Source of the DNA: an uncultured Mycoplasma sp.
GTDB taxonomy: Bacteria > Bacillota_I > Bacilli_A > RF39 > UBA660
Direction of reading: 5' to 3'
Assembly: GCA_946500895.1 (NCBI GenBank)
Contig: CAMMXG010000002.1
Coordinates: 6,574 to 70,573 of the forward strand
DNA length: 64,000 nt
A program made the translations under genes and the position numbers. Numbering within the stretch: the stretch's first letter is position 1; each line of letters starts with the position of its first letter. Below, piece by piece: positions 17,118-37,159 of the stretch. Under the pieces are notes generated by a model. That model searched no databases. It saw only the letters and a list, made by a program, of their open reading frames with translations, and was not told where the DNA came from.

Positions 17118-17591
17118 ATGTCTTTAGTAAAAGCAAAAGAATATTTAAAAAAATTTGGTTTGGATAAAAATGTTATAGAGTTTAGTGAGAGTACAGCAAC
17201 TGTTAGAGAGGCAGCAGAAGCTTTAAATTGTGAAGATGCCCAAATTGCTAAAACAATGGCTTTTTTAGTGGATGATTCTCCTATTTTAATTATAGCTAGT
17301 GGCGATAAAAAAATTGATAATTCAAAATTTAAACAAATTTTTCATACGAAAGCAAAAATGATTCCATTTGATGAGTTGGAAACACTTATTGGTCATGCTG
17401 CCGGAGGAGTTTGTCCTTTTGGAATTCATGATGGTGTAAAAGTATATTTAGATGTTTCTCTAAAAGAGTTTGATACTGTTTATCCGGCCTGTGGTACTAG
17501 TAATAGTGCTGTTAAATTAACACTAGAAGAACTTGAAAAAGCATCTGATTATTTAGAATATGTGGATGTATGCAAAAAGCCTGAAAATTAA
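17118..17591 (+). CDS. YbaK/EbsC-type aminoacyl-tRNA deacylase domain protein
   Basis: MSLVKAKEYL... from ATG 17118 after GAAGG. HAAGGVCPFG motif. Confidence 0.75.
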   Translation: MSLVKAKEYLKKFGLDKNVIEFSESTATVREAAEALNCEDAQIAKTMAFLVDDSPILIIASGDKKIDNSKFKQIFHTKAKMIPFDELETLIGHAAGGVCPFGIHDGVKVYLDVSLKEFDTVYPACGTSNSAVKLTLEELEKASDYLEYVDVCKKPEN

Positions 17592-17602
17592 TTCAGACTT
17601 TT

Positions 17603-18313
17603 TTACTTTTTAAACTTCAAAATATAATCTTTCATTTCTTTACTTACTCGATAACTATCTCTTATTTTACTAATACTTTTATTGATTGTAAATTTATTTA
17701 ATTTATTGTGTTCTAAGTATTTTAAACCAACACTTTCATATTTTATAAATATTTCACATACAAGCCAAGCTTCACCCATATTAACATAATATTCATCACT
17801 TTTAATATTATCTAAATATTTTAAAATTAAATCTAAATATTCTTCTTCTACATAATAGCATAATAATAAAATAAGTCCTACTCTGATATGATATGTTTGA
17901 TTGCTTTTAACTAATTTATCTATTTTGGTTAGAAAATAATCTTTATTTTTGTCAACTATCTTTAAACTATTACAAAAAGTATCACATAAAGCCCAATTAT
18001 CAATTAAATTAATAGCATCATCAAAGTAAAGCATTAATACATTGATATCTTTGATATTTGCAAACACTAGTAGTTTAATCATGATTTCTTCATAATAAGT
18101 ATTTTTGCTATACTTTAAAAATTCTTGAATATTTCCTTTGGGGATATCTTTGGCTATACTTCTTAATTTAGGAAGTCTTATACCCAACATTTCATATTTA
18201 GTAAAAGTTATTTTTTCGCTAAATTCTTTATACTTTTTTTCACTAATACTTTTTAAATATTCAATAAATTCTTGATAAGAATTATTGTTCCATTCTATAT
18301 TTTTTAAATCCAT
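17603..18313 (-). CDS. DNA alkylation repair (AlkD-like HEAT-repeat) protein
   Basis: YKEFSEKI......MLGIRLPKLRSIAK ... IDNWALCD pattern of the DNA_alkylation family. Likely start MDLKNIEW at 18313. Confidence 0.65.
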   Translation of the reverse strand: MDLKNIEWNNNSYQEFIEYLKSISEKKYKEFSEKITFTKYEMLGIRLPKLRSIAKDIPKGNIQEFLKYSKNTYYEEIMIKLLVFANIKDINVLMLYFDDAINLIDNWALCDTFCNSLKIVDKNKDYFLTKIDKLVKSNQTYHIRVGLILLLCYYVEEEYLDLILKYLDNIKSDEYYVNMGEAWLVCEIFIKYESVGLKYLEHNKLNKFTINKSISKIRDSYRVSKEMKDYILKFKK

Positions 18314-18341
18314 AATACTCACCAATACAATGATATCAATT

Positions 18342-19415
18342 CTAATAATTTCTTTCAATATATTTTGTTATTTTATGATTATTAGAATATTTAAAAGTAA
18401 AGCGATAATTATTAATAGATGAAAAATATTTGGAAAAAGTTATTTGCTTTTTATTATATAAATCATTACTATTTTTTATTCTTTTTTGTACTTTATTCCA
18501 TGTTTCTTTTCTAAGTTTTATTATTGTCTTTTTATTTCTTATTTTAAAATAATAACCTAAAAAGACGAATCCTTCTTTTGTATTAATTATCTTTGTTTTA
18601 TTTTCATTAATATTCAAATGATAAATGTTATTTAATTGATATTTTATTTTAATTAGACATTCTGCCAAATAATATTTGTCATGATGAAATATTAAAAAGT
18701 CATCCATATATCGAACATAATACTTTAAATGTAAATTGTGAATAATATAATGGTCTAATCTATTTAAATAAAAAATGCTTAAAAATTGACTTGTTAAATT
18801 ACCAATAGGAAGGCCTTTACCAAATTCATAATTTGGTAAACTAAAATTTTTTTCTTGATATTTTAAAATCGTACGATATACATAATATTCATTTGTAATA
18901 TCAATAATAGAATTAATTATTTTATATTCTGAAATAGTTAATTCATTTTTAATCATTCTTTTTAATACTTCATGATCAATATGATAAAAATACTTAGAAA
19001 TATCTATTTTTAGTACATATACTTGATCGTATTTTTTAAGTTGTTCTAAATATTTTTTAACCAACTTTATTCCATAATCGCTACCCATATTCTTTCTCGT
19101 AGCAATATTTCTATGGTCTAAATACTTTTCTAATTTTGGTTTTAAAATAAACTCTGTAACGTAATGATTAATGATTTTATCATGTATACTTAGGGACATT
19201 ACAATTCTTTTTTTAGGCTCTCTAATTAAAAAAATATTATAGTGTTCTACCCTATAATTATTATTTTTTAGTTCATAATAAATATTGATTAAATTTTGAA
19301 ATTTATTTCTTTCAAAATTTAATAATTTTTTCTTGTTTTTTACATTTTTACTAATTTGATGCTCATAAATAAATAATAGATCTTTAAACTTTACTTCCAT
19401 TTTTAATCCATCCAT
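18342..19415 (-). CDS. DGR-type reverse transcriptase
   Basis: FLIREPKKRIV, KIDISKYFYHIDH, GLPIGNLTSQFLSIFYLNRLDH (DGR-typical I/LGxxxSQ) and YVRYMDDFLIF (YxDD). An alternative start at 19400 (MEVKF) has the better RBS. Overlaps avd by 17-32 nt. Confidence 0.9.
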   Translation of the reverse strand: MDGLKMEVKFKDLLFIYEHQISKNVKNKKKLLNFERNKFQNLINIYYELKNNNYRVEHYNIFLIREPKKRIVMSLSIHDKIINHYVTEFILKPKLEKYLDHRNIATRKNMGSDYGIKLVKKYLEQLKKYDQVYVLKIDISKYFYHIDHEVLKRMIKNELTISEYKIINSIIDITNEYYVYRTILKYQEKNFSLPNYEFGKGLPIGNLTSQFLSIFYLNRLDHYIIHNLHLKYYVRYMDDFLIFHHDKYYLAECLIKIKYQLNNIYHLNINENKTKIINTKEGFVFLGYYFKIRNKKTIIKLRKETWNKVQKRIKNSNDLYNKKQITFSKYFSSINNYRFTFKYSNNHKITKYIERNY

Positions 19416-19722
19416 AAATCATTTTGGTTATAACAGATAATTCTTGTACTTTATGTATACATGTTTTTTCACTAATATACTTCTTCTTAAACGATTCTTC
19501 AAAATAAAAATCTAACATATTAATTTTAGATATAATTAATTGTTGTTCTTCTAACTTATCTTGTTTTAAATTAGCAAGTAATATTAATTCTAATATTTCA
19601 TAACTTGTACTTTTTATTTTGTCTTTTAGTATTTTTTCACTTTTAGGATAATTAATTAAAAAAGAATCTAGAGATAAAATAAATTGCTTCATATTTTTTA
19701 CAATTCGAAACTCATTATTCAT
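19384..19722 (-). CDS. avd: Avd-like four-helix-bundle accessory protein
   Basis: 112 aa and helical, with the ...INYPKSEK..L...I....YEILELILLAN...... and ...KMIYGWIKN pattern typical of four-helix-bundle/Avd proteins. Lies immediately upstream of, and overlapping, the RT. Confidence 0.7.
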   Translation of the reverse strand: MNNEFRIVKNMKQFILSLDSFLINYPKSEKILKDKIKSTSYEILELILLANLKQDKLEEQQLIISKINMLDFYFEESFKKKYISEKTCIHKVQELSVITKMIYGWIKNGSKV

Positions 19723-20074
19723 TCACCAGTTTTTCAATTCCTTCTAATATTTGAAGCAACTCGCTTTCATCTTTTTCTTCCAATTTTAATTCAATATTAT
19801 GAATTAAATTTTGAACAACTATTTTGTCTTTAGATTTTGCTAAATAAAAAGCATATTTATTTAAATCTTTAAAATCTTTTGTTATATTCTCGCCAATAAT
19901 CTTATAATTAATTTTTTTTGCTTCCAAAATATTTATTACTTTATTAATTGCATTACTTGGAAAGCCTACTTTCCTATCTATTACTTTATAATCTAATAAA
20001 TAATGCAATATGAAAGCATCATCATCAAATACTTGATAAAATAAACCCATTTTTCTAATTGTTACAAATTTCAT
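19715..20074 (-). CDS. MutS-domain-I-like small protein (MSL2), DGR accessory candidate
   Basis: 119 aa. VTIRKMGLFYQVFDDDAFILHYLLDYKV..RKVGFPSNAINKVINILEAKKINYKII resembles the MutS mismatch-binding domain (GDFYE..DA....L......G.P......L...G..V). Overlaps the avd start by 8 nt. Confidence 0.5.
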   Translation of the reverse strand: MKFVTIRKMGLFYQVFDDDAFILHYLLDYKVIDRKVGFPSNAINKVINILEAKKINYKIIGENITKDFKDLNKYAFYLAKSKDKIVVQNLIHNIELKLEEKDESELLQILEGIEKLVNE

Positions 20075-20227
20075 TTTAATTCCTTTCTTAATATATAGTA
20101 CTAGGAAAGTGACGTATCACTTTCCATCTATATATGTTATTCAAGGCTAAGCCTTAGGATAAGTAATGTTTTCTAACATACACAAATTATAGTCTTAACC
20201 ATAAAATCCCGATTATTAGAAAGCTCT
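20075..20227 (-). ncRNA. Candidate DGR RNA spacer (Sp-like) 3' of the TR, with two hairpins
   Basis: Non-coding. GGAAAGTGA-cgta-TCACTTTCC (20104-20125, 9-bp stem) and AAGGC-taa-GCCTT (20143-20155). No U-run follows either hairpin on the minus strand. Confidence 0.4.
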
Positions 20228-20329
20228 AGGACGGACCCCGTTCGAGTTGTTCGCATTGTTGTTGTTGTTCACATAACCAGTATTGTTCACATTGAAGACG
20301 TTGTTCGAATTCGACGAGTTCGGTTTTTT
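20228..20329 (-). repeat. DGR template repeat (TR)
   Basis: Non-coding. The minus strand reads (AAAAAA)CCG AAC TCG TCG AAT TCG AAC AAC GTC TTC AAT GTG AAC AAT ACT GGT TAT GTG AAC AAC AAC AAC AAT GCG AAC AAC TCG AAC GGG GTC CGT CCT, with 15 AAY codons in the VR frame. The 5' limit (20323 versus 20329) is uncertain. Confidence 0.9.
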
Positions 20330-20337
20330 ACTAATAC

Positions 20338-20631
20338 TTACCCTACAATTTTATTTAATATTTTTCTAATTGTTTCTAAATAAAAATATTTATTATACTG
20401 ATTATTTTCATCAGCATATTTACTTATAATATCTAAATTATCTAATATTAGATAATTAATATGTTTTTCTTGTAGTTGATGCTCTATATTCACATTTGTC
20501 TTTAAATGTTTTAGTATGAGAGCATCAATACCATAAGAAACATATTTTCCTTTTCTTATAATTACCACAAGGTATTCTTGATGTTTTTTCTTAGCAATGT
20601 AATATCTATTATATATTCCCACATTTACCAC
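20338..20631 (-). CDS. MutS-domain-I-like small protein (MSL1), paralog of MSL2
   Basis: 97 aa. LVVIIRKGKYVSYGIDALILKHL...EKHINYLIL aligns with VTIRKMGLFYQVFDDDAFILHYL...KKINYKII of MSL2. Stop lies 8 nt before the TR. The start may be GTG at 20622 (better spacing to AGGAAG). Confidence 0.45.
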   Translation of the reverse strand: MVNVGIYNRYYIAKKKHQEYLVVIIRKGKYVSYGIDALILKHLKTNVNIEHQLQEKHINYLILDNLDIISKYADENNQYNKYFYLETIRKILNKIVG

Positions 20632-20656
20632 TTCCTACCTGTGGATAAGTGGCGCC

Positions 20657-20688
20657 GGCTCGGGAAGACTTCCCTCTTCCTGCGAGCC
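20657..20688 (-). other. GC-rich hairpin 4 nt downstream of the DGR target stop codon
   Basis: Plus strand GGCTCG-GGAAG-a-CTTCC-ctcttcctg-CGAGCC, preceded by the palindromic GGCGCC. No U-run on the minus strand, so not an obvious terminator. Striking in AT-rich surroundings. Confidence 0.5.
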
Positions 20689-20691
20689 TTA

Positions 20692-21912
20692 TCACACCTC
20701 CAAAGTGTATGGACTATTACTAGTTCCATCACCTCCTGAGATTTTCACATTCGATGTTAGATATACCGAAGGACGGACCCCGCCCGAGCCGCTCGCACTG
20801 CCGTTGCTGTACACAAAACCAGTAGAGTACACATCGAAGACACTGCTCGAACCCGACGAGCTCGGCGTAAGTGTCCATTGATAAGTACTGCTATCATAGA
20901 GCCAGTCATTGTTCTTGCAATCGCTAAAACTTGATGAATCCCAATCGTACAACTCTTTTGCTAAACATGCATCCCTATTTGTGGTTGAACCACCACTTGT
21001 GGCATATCCATAATCACTTGGATACATTAAAGCTACTTTCCCACTCCATGTTGTTGGTCTTCCACTATATACTGTTGTTCCTCTTTCATATCCATAAAAA
21101 TGACTTGCTAGTCCATTCCTGGAACTTGTATAACTTGCTGTTCCACCAAGTTTCCATGTTACCGTTTCAATCATATTTCTTGCTGTATCACTTTTTATCC
21201 CAGTACTAGCATAGCTTCCACTTCCATTTAAATAATCCCCATTCAATGTTGTTTGTAAACTGGCTGTGTACCAATCATTTACGGTACCACTATCCCAAGC
21301 AATACTACCTAATGATTCGCTTCTTATTATTTTAATTAATTTTTGTCCACTTACACCATGAGTATCTTCACTAAATACACCAATAATTCTCCATAATTCA
21401 TCATTAAACAAAACATAATTGTTTGGATCTGCTCCTATATATCTTAAATTATTTGCTTCATCATATGCTAACATGTTTGGATTAGTGTTATAAGCTTCTT
21501 CTATTACATCTACTGCTGGCGTTCCTTTTGATTCTTCAAAATACAGGGTACATTTAGTGCCCTTGGTTGTATAAGGAGCAATCGTAAATGTTTTGGTATC
21601 ACTATCATAGTTTAATGTTAAATTTTGAATTGTGCTACCATCTTTATAGGTACAGGTACTTTGAGTGGTATCTAGTGTATAGTTTTTAGAACTATCTAAT
21701 TCTTCTGATGCTACTCCATCAATGTATAGTGCTACAATATTTAGATCTGCCAAGCTATAATTGATTGTTCCATTTACTAAAGGTATTGATTGTGTCACTC
21801 GGTATTTTGCTCTGGTAAAATTTAGTACTACGGCACTAATAATTAGTACTGCTACTACTCCTATCATAATATTTCTTTTTAAATGGCTTTGTTTTAAAGT
21901 TTCGAACTCCAT
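20692..21912 (-). CDS. DGR target: membrane-anchored surface protein with C-terminal variable region (paralog family member 1)
   Basis: 406 aa with an N-terminal anchor (IMIGVVAVLIISAVVLNF). The C-terminus ...QWTLTPSSSGSSSVFDVYSTGFVYSNGSASGSGGVRPSVYL... is encoded by the VR. Shares family motifs with the ORFs at 30834, 41300, 55426 and 57156. Confidence 0.85.
   Translation of the reverse strand: MEFETLKQSHLKRNIMIGVVAVLIISAVVLNFTRAKYRVTQSIPLVNGTINYSLADLNIVALYIDGVASEELDSSKNYTLDTTQSTCTYKDGSTIQNLTLNYDSDTKTFTIAPYTTKGTKCTLYFEESKGTPAVDVIEEAYNTNPNMLAYDEANNLRYIGADPNNYVLFNDELWRIIGVFSEDTHGVSGQKLIKIIRSESLGSIAWDSGTVNDWYTASLQTTLNGDYLNGSGSYASTGIKSDTARNMIETVTWKLGGTASYTSSRNGLASHFYGYERGTTVYSGRPTTWSGKVALMYPSDYGYATSGGSTTNRDACLAKELYDWDSSSFSDCKNNDWLYDSSTYQWTLTPSSSGSSSVFDVYSTGFVYSNGSASGSGGVRPSVYLTSNVKISGGDGTSNSPYTLEV
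20770..20871 (-). repeat. DGR variable repeat (VR)
   Basis: Over 20771-20865 versus TR 20229-20323 (95 nt) I count 21 differences. Twenty are at TR adenines of the minus strand (20 of 32 A positions) and one is C->T (TR 20300 / VR 20842). The other 62 non-A positions are identical. Confidence 0.9.
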
Positions 21913-21971
21913 TCTTCTTCTCTTCCTTCCTTTTTGGCATCATATCACATTTTAATAGATAATACATGGTA

Positions 21972-21991
21972 TTCGACAAACGTTGTCAAAA
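21972..21991 (-). promoter_or_regulatory. Conserved TTCGACAAA-N-TTGTCAAAA motif (copy A) upstream of the DGR target gene
   Basis: Plus strand ttcgacaaacgttgtcaaaa. The minus strand reads TTTTGACAACGTTTGTCGAA, that is a TTGACA -35-like hexamer inside an imperfect palindrome, 60-80 nt upstream of the ATG at 21912. Confidence 0.5.
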
Positions 21992-22187
21992 CTTTTCAAT
22001 TTCTTTCTACTATGTTTTTCTATGATATATTTTTACTATACATTATTATTGAGTGATTGTCAATTATTTTGTAATTTTATTTTTATATTTTGTTATATTT
22101 ATTTACTTTTTATTCCTTATCACTATGTGTAGTTCTCTGTTTTAATATTTTGTGTAAAAATGATTACATAAGAAAGAGAGTTTTAAG

Positions 22188-22646
22188 ATGATGAGACTAA
22201 AAAAGGTAAGAATATATGCTGATTTAAAGCAAAGAGAAGTTGCGGAAATTCTAGGAGTATCTAGGAACAGTTATAACATGTGGGAAAGAGAAAATGATTT
22301 AATTCCATTAAGACAATTAGATAAGTTTTGTAATATCTTTCATGTATCACTAGATTATGTTTTAGGCTTCACTGATGTTTGGGAATATGAAAATAGTAAA
22401 AGAATTGATCCTAAATTACTTGCTAAAAGAATTAAAAGAATTAGACGCGAAAATGATTTGACTCAAGATGAGCTTGCTAAAATTCTTAATATTACTCGTT
22501 CTTCTATTAGTAAATATGAAAATGGCATTAATCTTGCTCTTACGAGTTATATTATAGGCTTTTGTAAATATTTTCATGTTTCGGCTGATTTTGTAACTGG
22601 TAAAATTGAAGAAGAAATTAAATTGGAAGTAGGAGTTAAAAATTAG
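22188..22646 (+). CDS. XRE-family regulator with two tandem HTH domains
   Basis: Two Cro/C1-type HTH units (LKQREVAEILGVSRNSYNMWE and LTQDELAKILNITRSSISKYE). Divergent from the DGR target gene. Confidence 0.8.
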   Translation: MMRLKKVRIYADLKQREVAEILGVSRNSYNMWERENDLIPLRQLDKFCNIFHVSLDYVLGFTDVWEYENSKRIDPKLLAKRIKRIRRENDLTQDELAKILNITRSSISKYENGINLALTSYIIGFCKYFHVSADFVTGKIEEEIKLEVGVKN

Positions 22647-22683
22647 AATTTGTTCTAATTTTTTTGTGCCATATTTTACCACT

Positions 22684-22712
22684 TGTTTTTGTACTATTGT
22701 TCGTTTATAATT
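22684..22712 (+). promoter_or_regulatory. Candidate promoter (TTGTTT-N17-TATAAT) with a LexA/Cheo-box-like GTAC-N4-GTTC in the spacer
   Basis: ttgttt (22684-22689), gtactattgttc (22692-22703) and tataat (22707-22712). One mismatch to GAAC-N4-GTTC. Confidence 0.35.
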
Positions 22713-22717
22713 AAATT

Positions 22718-23989
22718 ATGGTGATGCATATGGATACGGTTTATTTACACAGACATTTTTTGTGTATTGATTTAAAAAGTTTTTTTGCTAGTTGTGAATG
22801 TATTGAAAGAGGACTCAATCCTTTTACTTATCCTTTAGTGGTTGCGAATCCTACTCAAGGTAATGGTGCCATTACTCTAGCTGTTAGTCCTTATCTAAAA
22901 ACGAAAGGTGTTCCCTCTCGAGGACGACTTTATCAAATACCAAAACACATTCAATATACCATTGCTAAACCAAGAATGAATCTTTATTTAGCTAAATCCA
23001 AAGAAGTTGTTTCCATATATTTAAAATATGTTTCCAAAGATGATTTACATATTTATTCGATTGATGAATGTTTCTTAGATGTTACGGATTATTTAAAAAT
23101 GTATGGAAAAACAGATTATGAACTAGCTTTAGATATTTTAGAAGATGTTAAAGCATCTACTGGGTTATGTGCTACTTGTGGGATTGGGCCTAACATGTTA
23201 CTTGCCAAAATTAGTATGGATATTGAAGCAAAACATAATGATGATTTTATTGCTAAATGGGATTATGATGATATTCCAACTAAATTATGGAGTATTGCTC
23301 CCCTATCCAAAGTTTGGGGAATTGGTCCTAGGATGGAAGCTAATTTAAACAAAATGGGTATTTACTCTATGTACGATTTAGCTCACTATGACCGCCATAA
23401 ATTAAAACAAAGATTTGGCGTAATTGGTTTAGAATTATGGAACCATGCAAATGGCATTGATTTAAGTCGAATTGGCGATATGGGAAAGATAGAAGATAAA
23501 TCTTATTCTCATAGTCAAGTATTATTTAAAGATTATAATGGGAACAATATTAAAATTATTATTCGGGAGATGGTGGAAGTAATAGCTATTCGCCTTCATA
23601 AAAATCATAAAACAACTTCTATTATTGGTCTTGGAATTGGATATTCTAAAAGTGTGGGTGGTGGATTTTTTCATCAAATCAAACTGAATAATCCAACTGA
23701 TGTAGAACAAGCTATTTTAGCCAATTGTCTTATGATTTTTGATAAGTTTTATGAGGGACTACCCATTCGTAAAGTTACTATCTCTTGTGGCGAGCTAAAA
23801 GATAAAACAGGAGTACAATTAAATATCTTTGATGAAGTAGAAAAAATAAAAGAGCAAGAACAAATAAATCAAGCTATTTTAGATATTAAAGATAAATATG
23901 GAAAGAATGCCCTTTTAAAAGCTTCAAGTTTACTTAACGATTCTACTATCCATGAGAGAAACAAAAAGATTGGAGGTCATAACGCATGA
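22718..23989 (+). CDS. Y-family (translesion) DNA polymerase, UvrX/YqjW/UmuC-like
   Basis: FLCIDLKSFFASCE and SIDECFLDV catalytic motifs; 423 aa. Followed by a YolD-like gene, as in the Bacillus uvrX-yolD and yqjW-yqjX pairs. Confidence 0.9.
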   Translation: MVMHMDTVYLHRHFLCIDLKSFFASCECIERGLNPFTYPLVVANPTQGNGAITLAVSPYLKTKGVPSRGRLYQIPKHIQYTIAKPRMNLYLAKSKEVVSIYLKYVSKDDLHIYSIDECFLDVTDYLKMYGKTDYELALDILEDVKASTGLCATCGIGPNMLLAKISMDIEAKHNDDFIAKWDYDDIPTKLWSIAPLSKVWGIGPRMEANLNKMGIYSMYDLAHYDRHKLKQRFGVIGLELWNHANGIDLSRIGDMGKIEDKSYSHSQVLFKDYNGNNIKIIIREMVEVIAIRLHKNHKTTSIIGLGIGYSKSVGGGFFHQIKLNNPTDVEQAILANCLMIFDKFYEGLPIRKVTISCGELKDKTGVQLNIFDEVEKIKEQEQINQAILDIKDKYGKNALLKASSLLNDSTIHERNKKIGGHNA

Positions 23990-24294
23990 TTGACCGTGGT
24001 TTTGTAAAATGGCAACCTTTTAATAGTATTACACCCCTTAAAGATACGATTGCTGACATTGAAAATAAAGAAAAAGATACCAGACCAATTTTATTTCCCG
24101 AAGAAGCAAATGCAATTAGTGAAGCTTTAATTGATGCTTATTATAGTAAAGAAGTTATTTCTATTACTTATTATGAAGCTGGAAAGATAAATACAATTAC
24201 AACTACTGTAAAAAAAATAAATCCAAACTCAAAAACGATTGAGCTTGGATCTAGTAAAATTATTTCTTTTAAGCAAATTGTACATATTTCTTAA
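23986..24294 (+). CDS. YolD-like protein
   Basis: 102 aa, MIDRGFVKWQPFNSI... 4-nt overlap with the polymerase gene. Confidence 0.65.
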   Translation: MIDRGFVKWQPFNSITPLKDTIADIENKEKDTRPILFPEEANAISEALIDAYYSKEVISITYYEAGKINTITTTVKKINPNSKTIELGSSKIISFKQIVHIS

Positions 24295-30833: not shown

Positions 30834-32573
30834 TTAAGTTTCTACTACATATGGATTTAAAGATGTGCCATTACCCGAAGAAAATGTAGTACTAGCCTTC
30901 AAATTTACTACTGGACGCACACCAATCTGGCTAAACACGTTCGGATAGAGAAGGCCATTTGAATACACATGAAATACCCAAGCACTGCCACTAGATCCGC
31001 TAAAATTAGACGGAGACATGGTCCAATAGTTTTGTCCTGTATATAGGTAATAACTTTGGTTGTTTGCTCCATATACTCCTCCGGCATAGGCTACCTCATC
31101 GGCACTGATTAACCCAATTGGATATTGTAATGCTTTATTTCCATTACTACTTCCAGAAACTGTATATAAATCGCTATCATTTGCACATTCAAATGTTGGT
31201 TGTCTATTTGTTACTAATCTGATATATCCTCCATAGTATGTTGTGGTGGTCCCTGTGCCTCCTTGCCCATTACTAACAGATTCATTTGTACTTGGCGTTC
31301 TATCTCCACAGAAGCCAGCATTTCCATCTAAATCGTCGGCATAACTTGCTAGATTATTTGTGTACCATGTGTTTAATGCTGTTAGGATTGTACTATTTGT
31401 TCCAGTTCCATGGACATTGTTTGTTGTGTATTTTAATCCTACATAGGCATTATTATTAGATGAACTATTGAATGCACTTATATTTGCTAACTGTGTTCCA
31501 CTTCCAGTTGCAGTATTACTTGTACCTTGATAAATTAATCTTAAACTTCCATCTTCATTAATCCTTATGATGCGCCAATAGAAGCCTGCAAATTGTACCC
31601 AGTTATCACTTGGATTTCCTGCAAAATAGTAGGTTCTTCCTTTACTTGTATCTTCATAATAGATTGTTCCTGTTGTATCTTCTGTTACTGTTACGCTAAA
31701 GTCGTTTCTGGTCGCTAGGTTTTTACTTGCGATTATTTCTTCAATTGTTATTAGTTGTTTAGCTATTAATGGTTCACTACATATTATTTTGCTTGTTCCA
31801 TTTAATCTTGTACATACTACTTGTTCTTCTTCACTTTCTTCTAATTCTATTGTGTAACTATTATTTTGGATTGTTGCATTTGTATTTGGTGTACATATAT
31901 TATCTGCTGTTACACAATATGTTGCACTTGTTACATTATTTGTTAATGTGGAAGTGACTGTTGTATTATCAACACCAAATTTTGCTTCTAATGTGTCTAC
32001 TACTTGTGTTTCTGGGTTTGCTACAACATTTATCTTTGATGAATATACTTTATTTGCAGCTTGTTCTACTGTTGCATCATAGTCTAACCATAATCTTAAA
32101 TGATATGTCTTTGTTTCATCGGCATTTAGTGTTCCAGTGTAAAGATTATATGCTTCATAAGCTCCTTCTACTTCTGGTGTTACACTTGTATTATCACTTA
32201 ATATAGATATTACATTATCATTGGTATCACTTGATAATGCTACTTTGATATAATTAGCACTAAGTGAGTTCGCTTGTTCATTTAAACTTTCTAAATTAAC
32301 TTGATAATTTGTCGCTGTATTACATGTATTTTCAATCGTAAAATCATAACTCGTTCCTGATAGTCCTTCTACATCAGTGATTGGTAATATATTATTTAAA
32401 CTGATAGAACTAGAATTACTTGTTAAACTGATATTTAAACAACCACTTTGAAAAGTATTCGCTGTATCTTGAATACCACCTGTACTAAAGAAGGCAAATG
32501 TAATTCCTATTACTCCTATTAAAATAACTACAATTCCCCCAACTAATAATGATATTTTAGTACCTTTATTCAT
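30834..32573 (-). CDS. Surface-protein paralog 2 (same family as the DGR target), not templated by the TR
   Basis: 579 aa with an N-terminal signal/anchor (ISLLVGGIVVILIGVIGITFAFFS). Core TGTIYYEDTSKGRTYYFAGNPSDNWVQFAGFYWRIIRINEDGSLRLIYQG, NAGFCGDR, LQYPIGLISADEVAYAGG and YWTMSP...GVRPVVNL. Confidence 0.8.
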   Translation of the reverse strand: MNKGTKISLLVGGIVVILIGVIGITFAFFSTGGIQDTANTFQSGCLNISLTSNSSSISLNNILPITDVEGLSGTSYDFTIENTCNTATNYQVNLESLNEQANSLSANYIKVALSSDTNDNVISILSDNTSVTPEVEGAYEAYNLYTGTLNADETKTYHLRLWLDYDATVEQAANKVYSSKINVVANPETQVVDTLEAKFGVDNTTVTSTLTNNVTSATYCVTADNICTPNTNATIQNNSYTIELEESEEEQVVCTRLNGTSKIICSEPLIAKQLITIEEIIASKNLATRNDFSVTVTEDTTGTIYYEDTSKGRTYYFAGNPSDNWVQFAGFYWRIIRINEDGSLRLIYQGTSNTATGSGTQLANISAFNSSSNNNAYVGLKYTTNNVHGTGTNSTILTALNTWYTNNLASYADDLDGNAGFCGDRTPSTNESVSNGQGGTGTTTTYYGGYIRLVTNRQPTFECANDSDLYTVSGSSNGNKALQYPIGLISADEVAYAGGVYGANNQSYYLYTGQNYWTMSPSNFSGSSGSAWVFHVYSNGLLYPNVFSQIGVRPVVNLKASTTFSSGNGTSLNPYVVET

Positions 32574-34476: not shown

Positions 34477-36237
34477 TCAATTCATGACTCTTTTAAACAT
34501 GCGTTCTAAATCATAAATACTAAACTTAATAATGGTTGGTCTGCCATGAGGGCAATTATAAGGATTATCACACATCACCAGTTCATTTAAAAGTTCTTGT
34601 TGGGCTTCATGAGAAATTCTCATATTAGCTTTAATACTCATCTTACAAGCTAGGGTTGCTGCTAGATGATCATTAAATTTAATAGGATCAAACTTGTCTT
34701 TGATATCGATTACTAAATCAATAATCTTTCTAATACTTTCTTCTTCATAGTCTTGTAATATCCATGTTGGATGAGCCTTGACAACATAAGTATTTACGCC
34801 AAATTCTTCTAAAATGAAACCCATATCAGTTAGAATATGTAAGTTTTCTTTTAAAGTTAAAAAGTCAGATGCAGAAAGTTCAATTGTGATAGGAATTAAA
34901 AGGTATGTAGTTGTTACTTCTTTCTTCCTTAAAGCGTTTAAATAACGTTCATAATTTACTCTTTCTTGAGCAGCATGTTGGTCTATTAAATAAATTCCCT
35001 CTTCATTTTGAGCAATAATATAAGTTCCTAGGGCTAGGCCTACGGGATACAATACCAAACTTTTCATTTCCTTATTTACTATTAATTCATCACTTGTTTT
35101 TAACTCAGGAGTATTTTCTTCTATACTCACTTGAAAGTTTAATTCAGTTTGATGTGGTTCCGCTTCTTTTTTAGCCATAGATGTTACAATATCAGCGATT
35201 ACACTATCTTTAATGATATTAACACTTTCTTCTTTTAGGGCATTTGGTATTAGCAAATTATTATATAAAGTATCTTTAATTGTTGTGTAGATTAAATCAT
35301 ATAATTCCGGCATTTTACTTATTTTGACATCCTGCTTGGTAGGATGAATATTTACATCGACTAAAGTCGGATCTGTGTTTATTTTTAAGACGACAACCGG
35401 ATACTTTCCATCTGGTTTATAGGTATGATAAGCATCATTTATCGCTTTATTAATTTCACTATTTCTAATGACACGATCATTTACAAATGTATTTAAATCA
35501 TTGCGATTCGAACGAAGTATTTCTGGTTTGCAAATATATCCATATATATCAAAGTCATTGTTGCTAGATGAAAATTCTAACATTTTATTTGAAACATTTA
35601 AACCATAGATTTCATGAATTGTTTTAAGCAAGTTATCGGAACCACTTGTTTTAACTATTATGCGACCATTGTTTGATAAACTAAATTTTATTCCTGGATG
35701 AGCCAAAGCTAATTTTTCGATTAAACTCACAGAATTATAAGTTTCGGTATTTTCCGCTTTTAAATATTTGAGTCTTGCTGGAGTATTATAAAACAGATTT
35801 GTTACTGTAATGCTTGTCCCTACTCGCAAATCTCCACTTGTATTTTCAAGTACTTCGCCACCTTTTATGTGAATGTAGGTCGAATCAATGCCATCACTTG
35901 TTTTTAATTCTACTTCTGATACACTAGCAATTGATGGTAGAGCTTCACCTCGAAAGCCCATCGTATCTATAAAAAATAAATCATCATCTCGTAAGATTTT
36001 ACTGGTAGCGTGTCTGCCAAAGGCAAGAAGAGCATCTTCTTTGTCCATACCAATTCCATTATCTGTTACTTTAATGCTTTCTAATCCACCTTTGATTAAT
36101 TCTACTTTTATTTCGGTAGATGCTGCGTCAATGCTGTTTTCAACTAGTTCTTTTACGATGCTTGAACTTCTTTCAACTACTTCACCAGCCGATATTTTAT
36201 TTGCTAAAGCTTCACTCATTACATGAATTTTACTCAT
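34477..36237 (-). CDS. mutL: DNA mismatch repair protein MutL
   Basis: NKISAGEVVERSSSIVKELVENSIDA and GFRGEAL. Start MSKIHVMSE at 36237. Confidence 0.9.
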   Translation of the reverse strand: MSKIHVMSEALANKISAGEVVERSSSIVKELVENSIDAASTEIKVELIKGGLESIKVTDNGIGMDKEDALLAFGRHATSKILRDDDLFFIDTMGFRGEALPSIASVSEVELKTSDGIDSTYIHIKGGEVLENTSGDLRVGTSITVTNLFYNTPARLKYLKAENTETYNSVSLIEKLALAHPGIKFSLSNNGRIIVKTSGSDNLLKTIHEIYGLNVSNKMLEFSSSNNDFDIYGYICKPEILRSNRNDLNTFVNDRVIRNSEINKAINDAYHTYKPDGKYPVVVLKINTDPTLVDVNIHPTKQDVKISKMPELYDLIYTTIKDTLYNNLLIPNALKEESVNIIKDSVIADIVTSMAKKEAEPHQTELNFQVSIEENTPELKTSDELIVNKEMKSLVLYPVGLALGTYIIAQNEEGIYLIDQHAAQERVNYERYLNALRKKEVTTTYLLIPITIELSASDFLTLKENLHILTDMGFILEEFGVNTYVVKAHPTWILQDYEEESIRKIIDLVIDIKDKFDPIKFNDHLAATLACKMSIKANMRISHEAQQELLNELVMCDNPYNCPHGRPTIIKFSIYDLERMFKRVMN

Positions 36238-37159
36238 AATTATCCTCACTACTATCTAGACGTATTTCTAAATCACTTTGGTTTGTTAAAATTTGGCAAG
36301 CTTCTTTTATGTTTAAAAAGCCTATTCCCGGAATTACAATATCGTTATTTTGAGGAATGTTTAAAGTGTATTTTTCTTTTTCCTGATTATATTTTCTTAT
36401 AATAGTTGTGTTACCATAGAAAATCACTTTATTGTCATTTTCAAAATAAAAATGATAATTTTCATTTATAATTAGAGTAGTACCCTTTTTTATTAAATAA
36501 GAAATTGGTTTAATTTCTTTTTGGGTTAAATACTCATCATTTTCATAGGTAAAACCTGGGGTATCAGTAATCGTAAAATCGCCTATTTTTATTTTAATAA
36601 AATCAAGGGTTGTATTTGGTTTACTTGATGTTAAGATTTCTTTTTTAAGTCCATGTTCTTTTAATAGCTTATTTATAAACGTACTTTTTCCAGCATTGGT
36701 AATCCCCATAATAAAGGAGTCTTTAAAGCCTAATTCTTCCATGATTTTTAAAATATTATTTGATTTAAAATTAGGTTTATTACTTATAAAAAGAATTTTA
36801 TCTTTAATTTTATAAACTTTCTCTAACCACAATTTTATTTTTTCCGGTTTCATATCACGTCTTAATGTATCGCTTTTACTTATTATTAGAACTTTAGGAA
36901 TTTGTACTTTATTAAATAAAGATACTGTTTTTTGATTGATATTTAGAAAGTCAATTAAAAAGAATGCTATTCCTTTACTTTTATTTACTTTGTTTAATAT
37001 TTCTTCTTCATCAATCTCTTCTTTATTTTTTCGTTCTCCATAATTTTTAAGCCTAAAGCAACGACGACAATAAACACTCTTTAAATCTGGTGTAAATCCT
37101 GGTTTATCTTCATCAAGATTTTGCATTACTTTGCCACAACCAATACAGATTTTACTCAT
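36230..37159 (-). CDS. yqeH: Ribosome biogenesis GTPase YqeH
   Basis: N-terminal zinc ribbon CIGCG...CRRCFRLKNYG and G1 motif GITNAGKST. Confidence 0.8.
   Translation of the reverse strand: MSKICIGCGKVMQNLDEDKPGFTPDLKSVYCRRCFRLKNYGERKNKEEIDEEEILNKVNKSKGIAFFLIDFLNINQKTVSLFNKVQIPKVLIISKSDTLRRDMKPEKIKLWLEKVYKIKDKILFISNKPNFKSNNILKIMEELGFKDSFIMGITNAGKSTFINKLLKEHGLKKEILTSSKPNTTLDFIKIKIGDFTITDTPGFTYENDEYLTQKEIKPISYLIKKGTTLIINENYHFYFENDNKVIFYGNTTIIRKYNQEKEKYTLNIPQNNDIVIPGIGFLNIKEACQILTNQSDLEIRLDSSEDNYE

Follow-up and report, generated by a model that had tools for sequence, protein, structure and literature searches.

The minus strand of the window (the whole 64-kb stretch of DNA that was analysed) carries a complete, chromosomal and active-looking DGR of an uncultured member of the gut Bacilli. 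The cassette runs from the target gene with its VR through ORF97, the TR, ORF119 and avd to the reverse transcriptase (RT), and it has both a DGR-type RT and a TR/VR pair that differs at TR adenines. The features of the locus are:

18342..19415, minus strand: DGR reverse transcriptase (Pfam RVT_1, E 4e-20)
19384..19722, minus strand: avd, accessory variability determinant (Pfam bAvd, E 3e-8)
19715..20074, minus strand: ORF119, short-form MSL (MutS-like protein), 119 aa from an ATG, with an AAAGGA-type ribosome-binding site upstream
20075..20227, minus strand: non-coding spacer between TR and ORF119, 153 nt
20228..20329, minus strand: TR, with a 96-nt core (20228-20323) and a possible A6 extension to 20329
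20338..20631, minus strand: ORF97, here called MSL2, 97 aa from the first GTG
20657..20688, minus strand: GC-rich stem-loop directly past the target stop codon, lacking a T-run
20692..21912, minus strand: DGR target gene, 406 aa, with an N-terminal hydrophobic anchor and a VR-encoded C-terminal region
20770..20865, minus strand: VR, 96 nt, at the 3' end of the target gene
22035..22063, minus strand: TTGACA-17-TATAGT upstream of the target, the best sigma-70-like match, by promoter consensus only

The coordinates of the two small ORFs and the 8-nt overlap between ORF119 and avd agree with an earlier, sequence-only reading of this DNA; avd also overlaps RT by 32 nt. That reading placed the end of ORF97 8 nt before the TR, which is correct if the A6 run is counted as TR and becomes 14 nt otherwise, and it described a 150-nt spacer between TR and ORF119, which is present and measures 153 nt. 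The spacer contains no ORF, has a counterpart of comparable length in a related cassette (L003) and presumably forms the 3' portion of the DGR RNA. An Rfam search of positions 17500-22500 matched no family. The only Pfam match of the target gene is a weak one to DUF6273, and homologous targets lie upstream of every related cassette. The match at 22035..22063 is a possible promoter for the entire cassette, and no terminator-like site was found on the minus strand within it. The stem-loop past the target gene folds as DNA at -10.4 kcal/mol (z -2.8), and the equivalent hairpin in L003 differs by compensatory inner-stem changes (GGAAG/CTTCC vs GGAGG/CCTCC). A host mutL gene had been pointed out elsewhere in the window and is indeed there (34477-36249); host MutS was also sought in the 64 kb, where only MutL was found.

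Over 96 nt, the TR and VR differ at 21 positions, 20 of them TR adenines, and the mismatches within the A6 run 5' of the repeat also all fall at A. A search across the window for further VRs returned none. In a near-identical strain (L006), the TR is 1 nt apart from the one described here and the MSL genes are identical, while the two VRs show 21 differences, all at TR-A positions. Because the VRs of near-identical strains differ solely at these positions, recent retrohoming is indicated, and the comparison indicates ongoing diversification by this DGR. Among relatives, the TR is almost invariant.

The MSLs were named as a MutS-like accessory class by Wu et al. (2017; PMC5758913) and are one of the four recognised classes of DGR accessory; the sequence-only reading had correctly described them as listed and uncharacterised. 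ORF119 falls in the 112-283 aa range of the class, accompanies an avd gene and is homologous to MutS, and no protein of the cassette matches HRDC. Its AF2 model (pLDDT 93.8) has a MutS domain I core (residues ~1-66) followed by a C-terminal helical hairpin (74-99 and 103-118), and the best 50 PDB matches found with Foldseek are all domain I of MutS/MSH proteins (E 1.6e-4, ~62 aa, rmsd 1.5-2 A). ORF119 itself matches Pfam MutS_I (PF01624) with E 0.0021 at 18.7 bits, under the gathering threshold of 20.6 bits, and 85 of 126 members of its family, which comprises 803 representative clusters, match the same model, many of them above that threshold (best E 2.3e-11). The fold and these family matches bear out the domain I likeness proposed earlier. 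Sequence searches of the PDB with shallow and deep profiles gave nothing significant; the best match of the deep MSL profile was MSH6 (E 0.09), whose GKFYELY aligns with the MSL-family consensus GkFyevy. The top BFVD matches are stand-alone phage mini-proteins annotated 'MutS domain I', including A0A8S5PL02 (74 aa) and A0A8S5L9N2 (84 aa), which superpose on ORF119 with an rmsd of 1.1-1.6 A over 58 residues.

In the alignment to E. coli MutS, F12 of ORF119 corresponds to F36 and Q14 to E38. The mismatch-wedge Phe is present in 123/123 family members and the Glu position is variable, and in ORF119 the motif (F12-Y-Q14) is incomplete, with Gln in place of Glu; the earlier claim that Phe-x-Glu is altered thus holds for the Glu and not for the Phe. 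Domain I is the only MutS domain matched, the connector, lever, clamp and ATPase domains (II-V) being absent. Without connector, clamp and ATPase domains, ORF119 cannot signal to MutL. Judged by its modelled fold and family matches, it belongs among the ordinary short-form MSLs, a class already known.

ORF97 represents a second family of 264 proteins (E<=0.1) that has no Pfam model and is apparently undescribed in the text-searchable literature. Its homologues begin at a position equivalent to the second GTG (20622; MGIYNRY..., 94 aa), which sits 8 nt past an AGGAAG, so the true start is probably 20622. The protein is basic (pI 9.4). It aligns in register with EcMutS 13-44 and retains the MutS N-terminal helix, which ORF119 lacks. 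The beta-hairpin, 'DA' helix, INY strand and a single C-terminal helix are also kept, and it is missing the 'GFP' strand segment and the second C-terminal helix, both of which are present in ORF119. Both the Phe and the Glu of Phe-x-Glu are gone (K29-Y-V31), and Lys/Arg replaces the wedge Phe in 88 of 94 family members. The sequence-only reading was right that the motif is altered in ORF97, but its pairing of GKYVS with GLFYQ fails, since the Phe position is Lys29 and not the implied Tyr. Direct matches to MutS are weak: 13.4 bits and E 0.095 against Pfam MutS_I (threshold 20.6 bits), and E 0.004-0.04 against EcMutS. MutS_I is likewise matched weakly by 8 of 94 family members, and is still the most frequent Pfam match of that family. 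Domains II-V are not matched in this 97-aa protein, for which domain I is the only match. A sequence search of the PDB with ORF97 gave no MutS match, its AF2 model from a 14-sequence alignment is poor (pLDDT 57) and Foldseek with that model returned noise only. The structural similarity to MutS domain I expected of both proteins is seen for ORF119, and the fold of ORF97 is known solely through sequence profiles.

The direct alignment of ORF97 with ORF119 on which the earlier claim of paralogy was based is not significant by pairwise BLASTP (E 0.16-1.4) or by hhalign with shallow profiles (E 0.049). With deep family profiles, hhalign recovers the proposed register with a probability of 95.2% and E 2.5e-8 over 66 columns, and control profiles of preserved composition (reversed, and 20 column-shuffled) score 8-16 vs 46.5. 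Positions 1-87 of the ORF97 HMM, nearly its whole length, align to long-form MSLs, N-terminal helix motif included, with the motifs RY..K..YP.Y, DA, INY and N.Y in common. Among 1255 equally AT-rich ORFs, the ORF97 and MSL HMMs match each other's families reciprocally and match nothing else. Both families are full-length in homologues down to about 34-45% identity (range 34-60%), and pairwise dN/dS values of 0.1-0.6 in both point to purifying selection. These profile comparisons support the paralogy, albeit diverged: ORF119, and probably ORF97 too, goes back to domain I of MutS, the part that recognises mismatches, and ORF97 is a diverged MSL paralogue that would have arisen by duplication of a long-form MSL. 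The two are not the equal duplicate copies first envisaged, because each has kept and lost different structural elements, and the losses are complementary, with ORF119 keeping the wedge Phe and ORF97 keeping the N-terminal helix and turning basic.

Related cassettes were surveyed at 24 genome loci and about 12 others, a sample biased toward relatives of ORF119. About 30 DGR cassettes of gut Bacilli carry an ORF97/ORF119-type pair, and an ORF97-type gene (o97) is present in all complete short-form-MSL cassettes surveyed. The genes are arranged in at least four orders: tgt-o97-TR-msl-avd-rt, tgt-TR-msl-avd-rt-o97, tgt-msl-avd-rt-TR-o97 and tgt-TR-o97-msl-avd-rt. Since the same pair is found in all of them, the bracketing of the TR, which had been highlighted earlier as an unfamiliar arrangement, is incidental and was rejected as a conserved feature; co-occurrence is conserved, position is not. 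The o97 reading frame frequently overlaps msl or rt, for instance by 4 nt between rt and o97 in L003 and between o97 and msl in L031. Among homologous, active-looking DGRs, the ORF97 partner is absent from four Clostridia cassettes (L025-L028), which instead have a single long-form MSL bearing both the ORF97-type and the ORF119-type features. For ORF97, this is an absence of the kind that the earlier reading had named as evidence against its proposal.

ORF119 is like the MSLs already described (Wu et al., 2017; the Bacteroides Bfr/Bth/Bun Msl of the Macadangdang et al., 2024 preprint; the Legionella DGR) in being a small, avd-adjacent homologue of MutS domain I. A second, diverged MSL-derived gene per cassette is not mentioned in the main text of the MSL papers (Wu et al., 2017; Macadangdang et al., 2024). 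The MSL type was already known, and the conserved ORF97 partner family is apparently new. ORF97 differs from described MSLs in having no MutS_I Pfam assignment, in lacking the Phe and the GFP segment and in being basic rather than near-neutral (reported pI 7.2 +/- 1.7; Wu et al., 2017). In its small size, basic character and place in the same operon, it recalls Avd, which is required together with RT and has a similar pI, although Avd has a four-helix bundle fold and is encoded here by its own gene (19384-19722).

With domain I of MutS, MSH6 and MSH3 (PF01624), ORF119 shares the fold, the motifs G-x-F-Y, DA and G-[FI]-P and the invariant F36-equivalent Phe, and ORF97 shares the motif of the N-terminal helix (EcMutS 13-27). 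Unlike MutS, both proteins lack the ATP-driven clamp and MutL recruitment, do not conserve the Glu of Phe-x-Glu and carry an MSL-specific C-terminal helical extension. By analogy, the pair may resemble MSH2-MSH6 (MutS-alpha), in which one paralogue keeps the mismatch-inserting Phe (MSH6; ORF119 here) and the other has lost it (MSH2; ORF97 here). However, MSH proteins dimerise through their ATPase domains, which ORF97 and ORF119 do not have. Domain I does not mediate dimerisation in MutS, and tight mismatch binding is not known for an isolated domain I.

The best explanation of the locus, to which we assign a probability of roughly 0.55, is a DGR with two MutS-domain-I-derived accessories that, we infer, act as a pair on the mismatch-rich cDNA:VR heteroduplex. 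ORF97 and ORF119 would work together as one unit. An asymmetric heterodimer is plausible, with Phe insertion by ORF119 alone, as by MSH6 in its complex with MSH2. The ligand of the pair would be the heteroduplex, dense in mismatches, that arises on pairing of adenine-mutagenised cDNA with the VR. Once bound, the pair could both stabilise this duplex and conceal it from host MutS-MutL, which would otherwise erase the events. In its strongest form, which we consider rather unlikely, the pair would be an obligate asymmetric 'mini-MutS' heterodimer that caps clustered mismatches without licensing repair, a DGR-encoded anti-mismatch-repair device derived by duplication and complementary degeneration of one long-form MSL.

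Knockout of mutS in Bacteroides raises VR mutagenesis 5-10-fold (bioRxiv 10.1101/2024.11.15.621889), and a DGR installed in E. coli is boosted with dominant-negative MutL (bioRxiv 10.64898/2026.07.21.739853). Because such recent work shows most DGR events to be erased by mismatch repair of the host, a retroelement-encoded MutS fragment is an obvious candidate counter-measure. Protection from mismatch repair is not universally limiting, as the DGR of the Bordetella phage has no MSL gene and does not depend on MutS (Wu et al., 2017), and deletion of mutS was without effect in a reconstituted E. coli system with one insertion-type reporter (PMC12875486). A whole lineage of gut Bacilli DGRs carries two co-inherited proteins of probable MutS-domain-I descent, the second belonging to an accessory family with hundreds of members to annotate. 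Cassettes with a short MSL and its partner can be set against those with only a long MSL, a natural split/unsplit comparison for dissecting function, and the genes offer constructs for better engineered DGR mutagenesis in mismatch-repair-proficient hosts.

A doubtful but serious alternative is that the pair acts at reverse transcription, joining the RT-Avd-TR RNA complex and binding either the primer terminus or the RNA:cDNA hybrid where it is mispaired at template adenines; it might in this way hold the cDNA or help synthesis to continue beyond misincorporations. The translational coupling of msl to avd and rt through the 8-nt and 32-nt overlaps, the frequency with which the ORF97-type gene overlaps rt or adjoins the TR, and the strongly basic character that ORF97 has in common with Avd (pI 9.5; Wu et al., 2017) are consistent with such a role. 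So is retention of the wedge Phe with loss of the Glu, which leaves room for a substrate other than a classical DNA mismatch. Adenine mutagenesis in most DGRs nevertheless needs RT and Avd alone, 74% of DGRs having avd and only 16/372 an MSL (Wu et al., 2017), and domain I of MutS is a module for binding duplex DNA. We consider it unlikely that the pair instead recognises a structure in the target DNA, such as a stem-loop or cruciform downstream of VR, a D-loop or a kinked junction, and thereby directs cDNA integration. MutS proteins do bind junctions and kinked DNA, the conserved GC-rich hairpin with its compensatory changes lies between the target gene and ORF97, immediately upstream of the latter, and in the order tgt-o97-TR-msl-avd-rt ORF97 is the gene nearest the target. 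Its position relative to the hairpin is not conserved, however, and hairpin-dependent DGRs such as that of BPP-1 require no MSL.

A further alternative makes ORF97 not MutS-derived but an unrelated small basic protein, e.g. an RNA chaperone of the TR transcript, with its MSL likeness stemming from AT-rich composition. The non-significant BLASTP result, the shallow hhalign E of 0.049, the poor AF2 model that makes its fold search meaningless and the lack of a PDB sequence match to MutS all speak for this. Against it stand the deep-profile E of 2.5e-8, with controls at 16 or below vs 46.5, the exclusive mutual HMM matches, the near full-length alignment to long-form MSLs with shared motifs and the prominence of MutS_I among Pfam matches, and we regard it as very improbable. 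The shuffled and reversed controls and the exclusive matches likewise led to the rejection of ORF97 as a compositional artefact or as a chance ORF. Least probable of all, and barely credible, is a reading of either ORF, or of both, as a non-functional remnant or as a chance frame in AT-rich sequence. Some cassettes have decayed, with ORF97 truncated and TR-msl-avd-rt deleted in L004/L005, avd-rt replaced in L008/L030 and msl truncated in L009, but conservation at full length at 34-60% identity, the varied gene orders, dN/dS below 1 and coupling through overlapping frames argue otherwise. Beyond the surveyed loci, a pattern search of IMG/VR contigs found no relatives of ORF119 or ORF97, and the sole return of a metagenome scan (alignment A3) was one near-identical locus.

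A complete diversity-generating retroelement (DGR) spans positions 18342-21912 on the minus strand of the window. Re-reading confirmed the coordinates and overlaps that a sequence-only reading had given for its two small ORFs, ORF97 (o97) and ORF119 (msl, encoding a MutS-like or MSL protein), except for the start of ORF97: homologues begin at the second GTG (20622), which yields 94 aa.

Features of the DGR cassette
22063-22035, minus strand: best promoter-like site, upstream of the target gene
20692-21912, minus strand: DGR target gene, 406 aa
20770-20865, minus strand: variable repeat (VR), 96 nt
20657-20688, minus strand: GC-rich stem-loop directly 3' of the target stop codon, no T-run
20338-20631, minus strand: ORF97
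20228-20323 (possibly extending to 20329), minus strand: template repeat (TR), 96 nt, separated from ORF119 by a 153-nt spacer
19715-20074, minus strand: ORF119
19384-19722, minus strand: accessory variability determinant, avd (Pfam bAvd 3e-8)
18342-19415, minus strand: reverse transcriptase, rt (Pfam RVT_1 4e-20)

No terminator-like site was found to interrupt the minus strand of the cassette, so a single operon is plausible. TR and VR (96 nt each) differ at 21 positions, 20 of which are TR adenines. The exception, TR position 24 (about 20300), is C in the TR and T in the VR (about 20842); it is T in the TR of L006, one of the related DGR loci from other genomes (L001-L036), and in the VRs of both the window and L006, and the window TR seems to have acquired a T to C mutation later than the last VR rewriting. 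Close relatives have TRs that match exactly or are one base apart, and VRs that differ extensively. Between the window and L006, the VRs show 21 differences, all at TR-A positions, and the MSL genes are nucleotide-identical, which together point to recent retrohoming in cassettes bearing both genes. Comparison with relatives gives dN/dS values, from small counts, of 0.19-0.44 (msl) and 0.10-0.59 (o97).

ORF119 is a short-form MSL, without the MutS N-terminal helix. It belongs to the class named by Wu et al. (2017), who reported MSL in 16 of 372 DGRs, each time accompanied by avd and not once by HRDC, and gave its function as unknown (PMC5758913); the class is also the Msl of Bacteroides DGRs (bioRxiv 10.1101/2024.11.15.621889). 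Alone, ORF119 falls just under the Pfam MutS_I threshold (18.7 bits against 20.6, E 0.0021). Its proposed likeness to MutS domain I is borne out by fold and family. The AF2 model (ten homologues in the alignment) is confident (pLDDT 93.8), with a beta-beta-alpha-beta-alpha-beta topology followed by two long helices, and its top 50 Foldseek matches in the PDB are exclusively MutS/MSH chains (best E 1.6e-4, ~62 residues, rmsd 1.5-2 A, 25% identity); among viral models, the best matches are free-standing 'MutS domain I' mini-proteins of phages. Exhaustive HMMER searching (E<=1e-3) places 803 representative clusters in the family, mainly of 110-150 aa, and 85 of 126 family proteins match PF01624 (E<=0.01; best 2.3e-11). 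The family consensus, GkFyevy..DA, can be aligned to the motif GKFYELY..DA of MSH6, and the family profile equates ORF119 residues 3-57 with E. coli MutS 27-90, F12 with F36 and Q14 with E38. The Phe-x-Glu motif, read earlier as altered in both proteins, is incomplete in ORF119: the wedge Phe is kept, as in 123/123 family members, and only the Glu is replaced, at a position occupied by N, E, Q, Y, S or H. In ORF97 the motif is absent, and Lys or Arg takes the Phe position in 88 of 94 family members.

ORF97 is probably a diverged MSL paralogue founding a second family. Its close homologues occur in syntenic MAGs only; a search profile that took in a 34%-identical homologue from L003 retrieved 264 proteins of 85-105 aa at E<=0.1, and Pfam annotation is absent in 119 of the 120 members listed (the exception, P0236, has HTH domains). 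The alignment of ORF97 with ORF119 proposed from sequence is not significant by pairwise BLASTP or by hhalign with shallow profiles, but hhalign with deep alignments (126 MSL and 94 ORF97-type sequences) supports it over 66 columns (probability 95.2%, E 2.5e-8). When either alignment was reversed or the ORF97 columns were shuffled 20 times, scores fell to 8-16 from 46.5; since these controls retain composition, the match is not caused by AT-rich composition. Searched against 1255 ORFs from all loci compared, the ORF97 HMM matches ORF97-type (29) and MSL (7) proteins only, and the MSL HMM matches MSL (33) and ORF97-type (19) proteins only. Neither ORF97 nor ORF119 is a member of MutS proper or singly passes the Pfam MutS_I threshold; MutS_I is the commonest, weak Pfam match in the ORF97 family (8/94 members, best 5e-4). 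Positions 1-87 of 97 in the ORF97 HMM align to long-form MSLs, which have the MutS N-terminal helix, and this alignment includes the N-terminal motif RY..K..YP.YL, equivalent to E. coli MutS 13-27 (MMQQYLRLKAQHPEIL). Relative to MSL, ORF97 is missing ~14 residues, including the conserved Y-K...G-F-P strand, and has one C-terminal helix instead of two. The pI is 9.4 for ORF97 (family median 9.4) and 6.8 for ORF119 (family median 8.5). The AF2 model of ORF97 is poor (pLDDT 57), and a Foldseek search with it was uninformative; even so, its predicted secondary-structure order matches that of ORF119 minus one strand.

Among 36 related loci annotated with family HMMs and a TR/VR detector, an ORF97-type gene is present in all complete short-form-MSL cassettes.

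Gene orders in cassettes with both genes
Order a: target/VR-o97-TR-msl-avd-rt (window, L001, L002, L006-L009, L030, L017)
Order b: target/VR-TR-msl-avd-rt-o97 (L003, L010-L015)
Order c: target/VR-msl-avd-rt-TR-o97, at times with a second target (L018-L020, L024, L033-L036, probably L023)
Order e: target/VR-TR-o97-msl-avd-rt (L031, L032)

A 4-nt overlap of this gene with an adjacent one is frequent (rt/o97 in L003, o97/msl in L031), implying translational coupling inside the DGR operon, and further family members whose context was checked all lie within DGR cassettes. Presence of both ORFs in homologous, active-looking DGRs, on which the sequence-only reading had staked its proposal, thus holds for short-MSL cassettes but not for four Clostridia cassettes (L025-L028), which have clean A-specific TR/VR pairs and no ORF97-type gene. 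The MSLs of these four (142-165 aa) carry the N-terminal helix motif that is kept by ORF97 and missing from short MSLs. In the simplest history, a long-form MSL would have been duplicated and the copies would then have lost complementary parts, producing the short MSL and the ORF97-type protein. Since the gene order varies, the bracketing of the TR noted in the sequence-only reading is incidental.

In several order c cassettes, a second target-like gene immediately follows the ORF97-type gene or lies a few kb from it (L018:10374-11987; L023:9896-10933; L033:8260-9378; L035:8272-9684), and that of L018 has its own VR, matching the one TR. The MSL homologues at L035:6040-6369 and L036:170-499 have only 109 aa, with the called start past the Phe-bearing beta-hairpin; they are truncated, mis-called at the start or frameshifted.

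Cassettes also decay. At the syntenic locus in L004:5931-6330 and L005 (Candidatus Caccenecus avistercoris), a clean deletion from the 3' end of ORF97 through the RT has removed TR, msl, avd and rt, cut the ORF97 homologue to 75 aa and left the target gene beside a DNA_alkylation gene; this locus is a dead DGR remnant. In L007, L008 (10419-11781) and L030, 94-95% identical relatives, ~886 nt have been swapped for ~1.36 kb of unrelated sequence; the lost stretch covers the greater part of avd and the RT's N-terminal two thirds, and ORF97 and msl are intact. Separately, avd is nucleotide-identical between the window (19384-19722) and L001 (6898-7236), whereas the adjacent msl differs at 30/357 nt and ORF97 at 19/282 nt, which suggests mosaicism or recombination inside the cassette.

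The results above show ancestry, fold (for ORF119 only), conserved residues, co-inheritance with the DGR and signs of activity. In the preferred model, ORF97 and ORF119 would act jointly on the heteroduplex of cDNA and VR, which is dense in mismatches: ORF119 would contribute its invariant Phe as the inserted wedge and the basic ORF97 would grip the backbone, by analogy to MSH6/MSH2, with ORF119 likened to MSH6 and ORF97 to MSH2. The pair could hide the heteroduplex from host repair because both proteins lack every MutS domain needed for MutL recruitment. The model is proposed because mutS deletion raises VR mutagenesis 5-10-fold, in an all-or-nothing manner, in a Bacteroides DGR (Bov, which is outside the set listed as Msl-encoding; bioRxiv 10.1101/2024.11.15.621889), because engineered DGRs are boosted by mismatch-repair suppression (bioRxiv 10.64898/2026.07.21.739853), and because the host encodes MutL (34477-36249, minus strand). 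Upstream of mutL lies a GTPase gene (MMR_HSR1/RsgA; 36230-37159, minus strand), not mutS, and no MutS domain I is detectable in the 64-kb window besides the two DGR ORFs. Two results weigh against the model holding in general: the Bordetella phage DGR is independent of MutS (PMC5758913), and one E. coli reporter showed no mutS effect (PMC12875486).

Action of the pair at the reverse transcription step, on mispaired RNA:cDNA hybrids, is an unlikely alternative to masking of the heteroduplex. Less probable still is recognition of the conserved VR-proximal hairpin by the pair, in favour of which the stem-loop at 20657-20688 is kept in the distant relative L003 (L003:70-101) with compensatory inner-stem changes (GGAAG/CTTCC in the window, GGAGG/CCTCC in L003); the structure is possibly a DGR target-recognition hairpin and not a terminator.

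ORF119 is a further member of the already known MSL class, and no main text in the literature searched mentions ORF97-type proteins; what is new here is therefore DGR cassettes in which two MutS-domain-I derivatives, complementary to each other, are inherited together. Through this pair, the way in which DGRs deal with mismatch repair could be approached directly.

Elsewhere in the window, a 579-aa protein without Pfam match (30834-32573, minus strand) shares 45% identity, over its C-terminal 73 residues, with the VR-encoded C-terminus of the DGR target (E 3e-11). Since its gene lacks any VR that matches the TR, the protein is a non-diversified paralogue ~10 kb away. Directly upstream of the target, a divergent module (22188-24294, plus strand) encodes an HTH regulator, a Y-family polymerase (IMS/UmuC-like, 423 aa) and a YolD-like protein, with Pfam labels taken from the L001 annotation, and the synteny of this error-prone polymerase module with the DGR is kept in L001 and L004.
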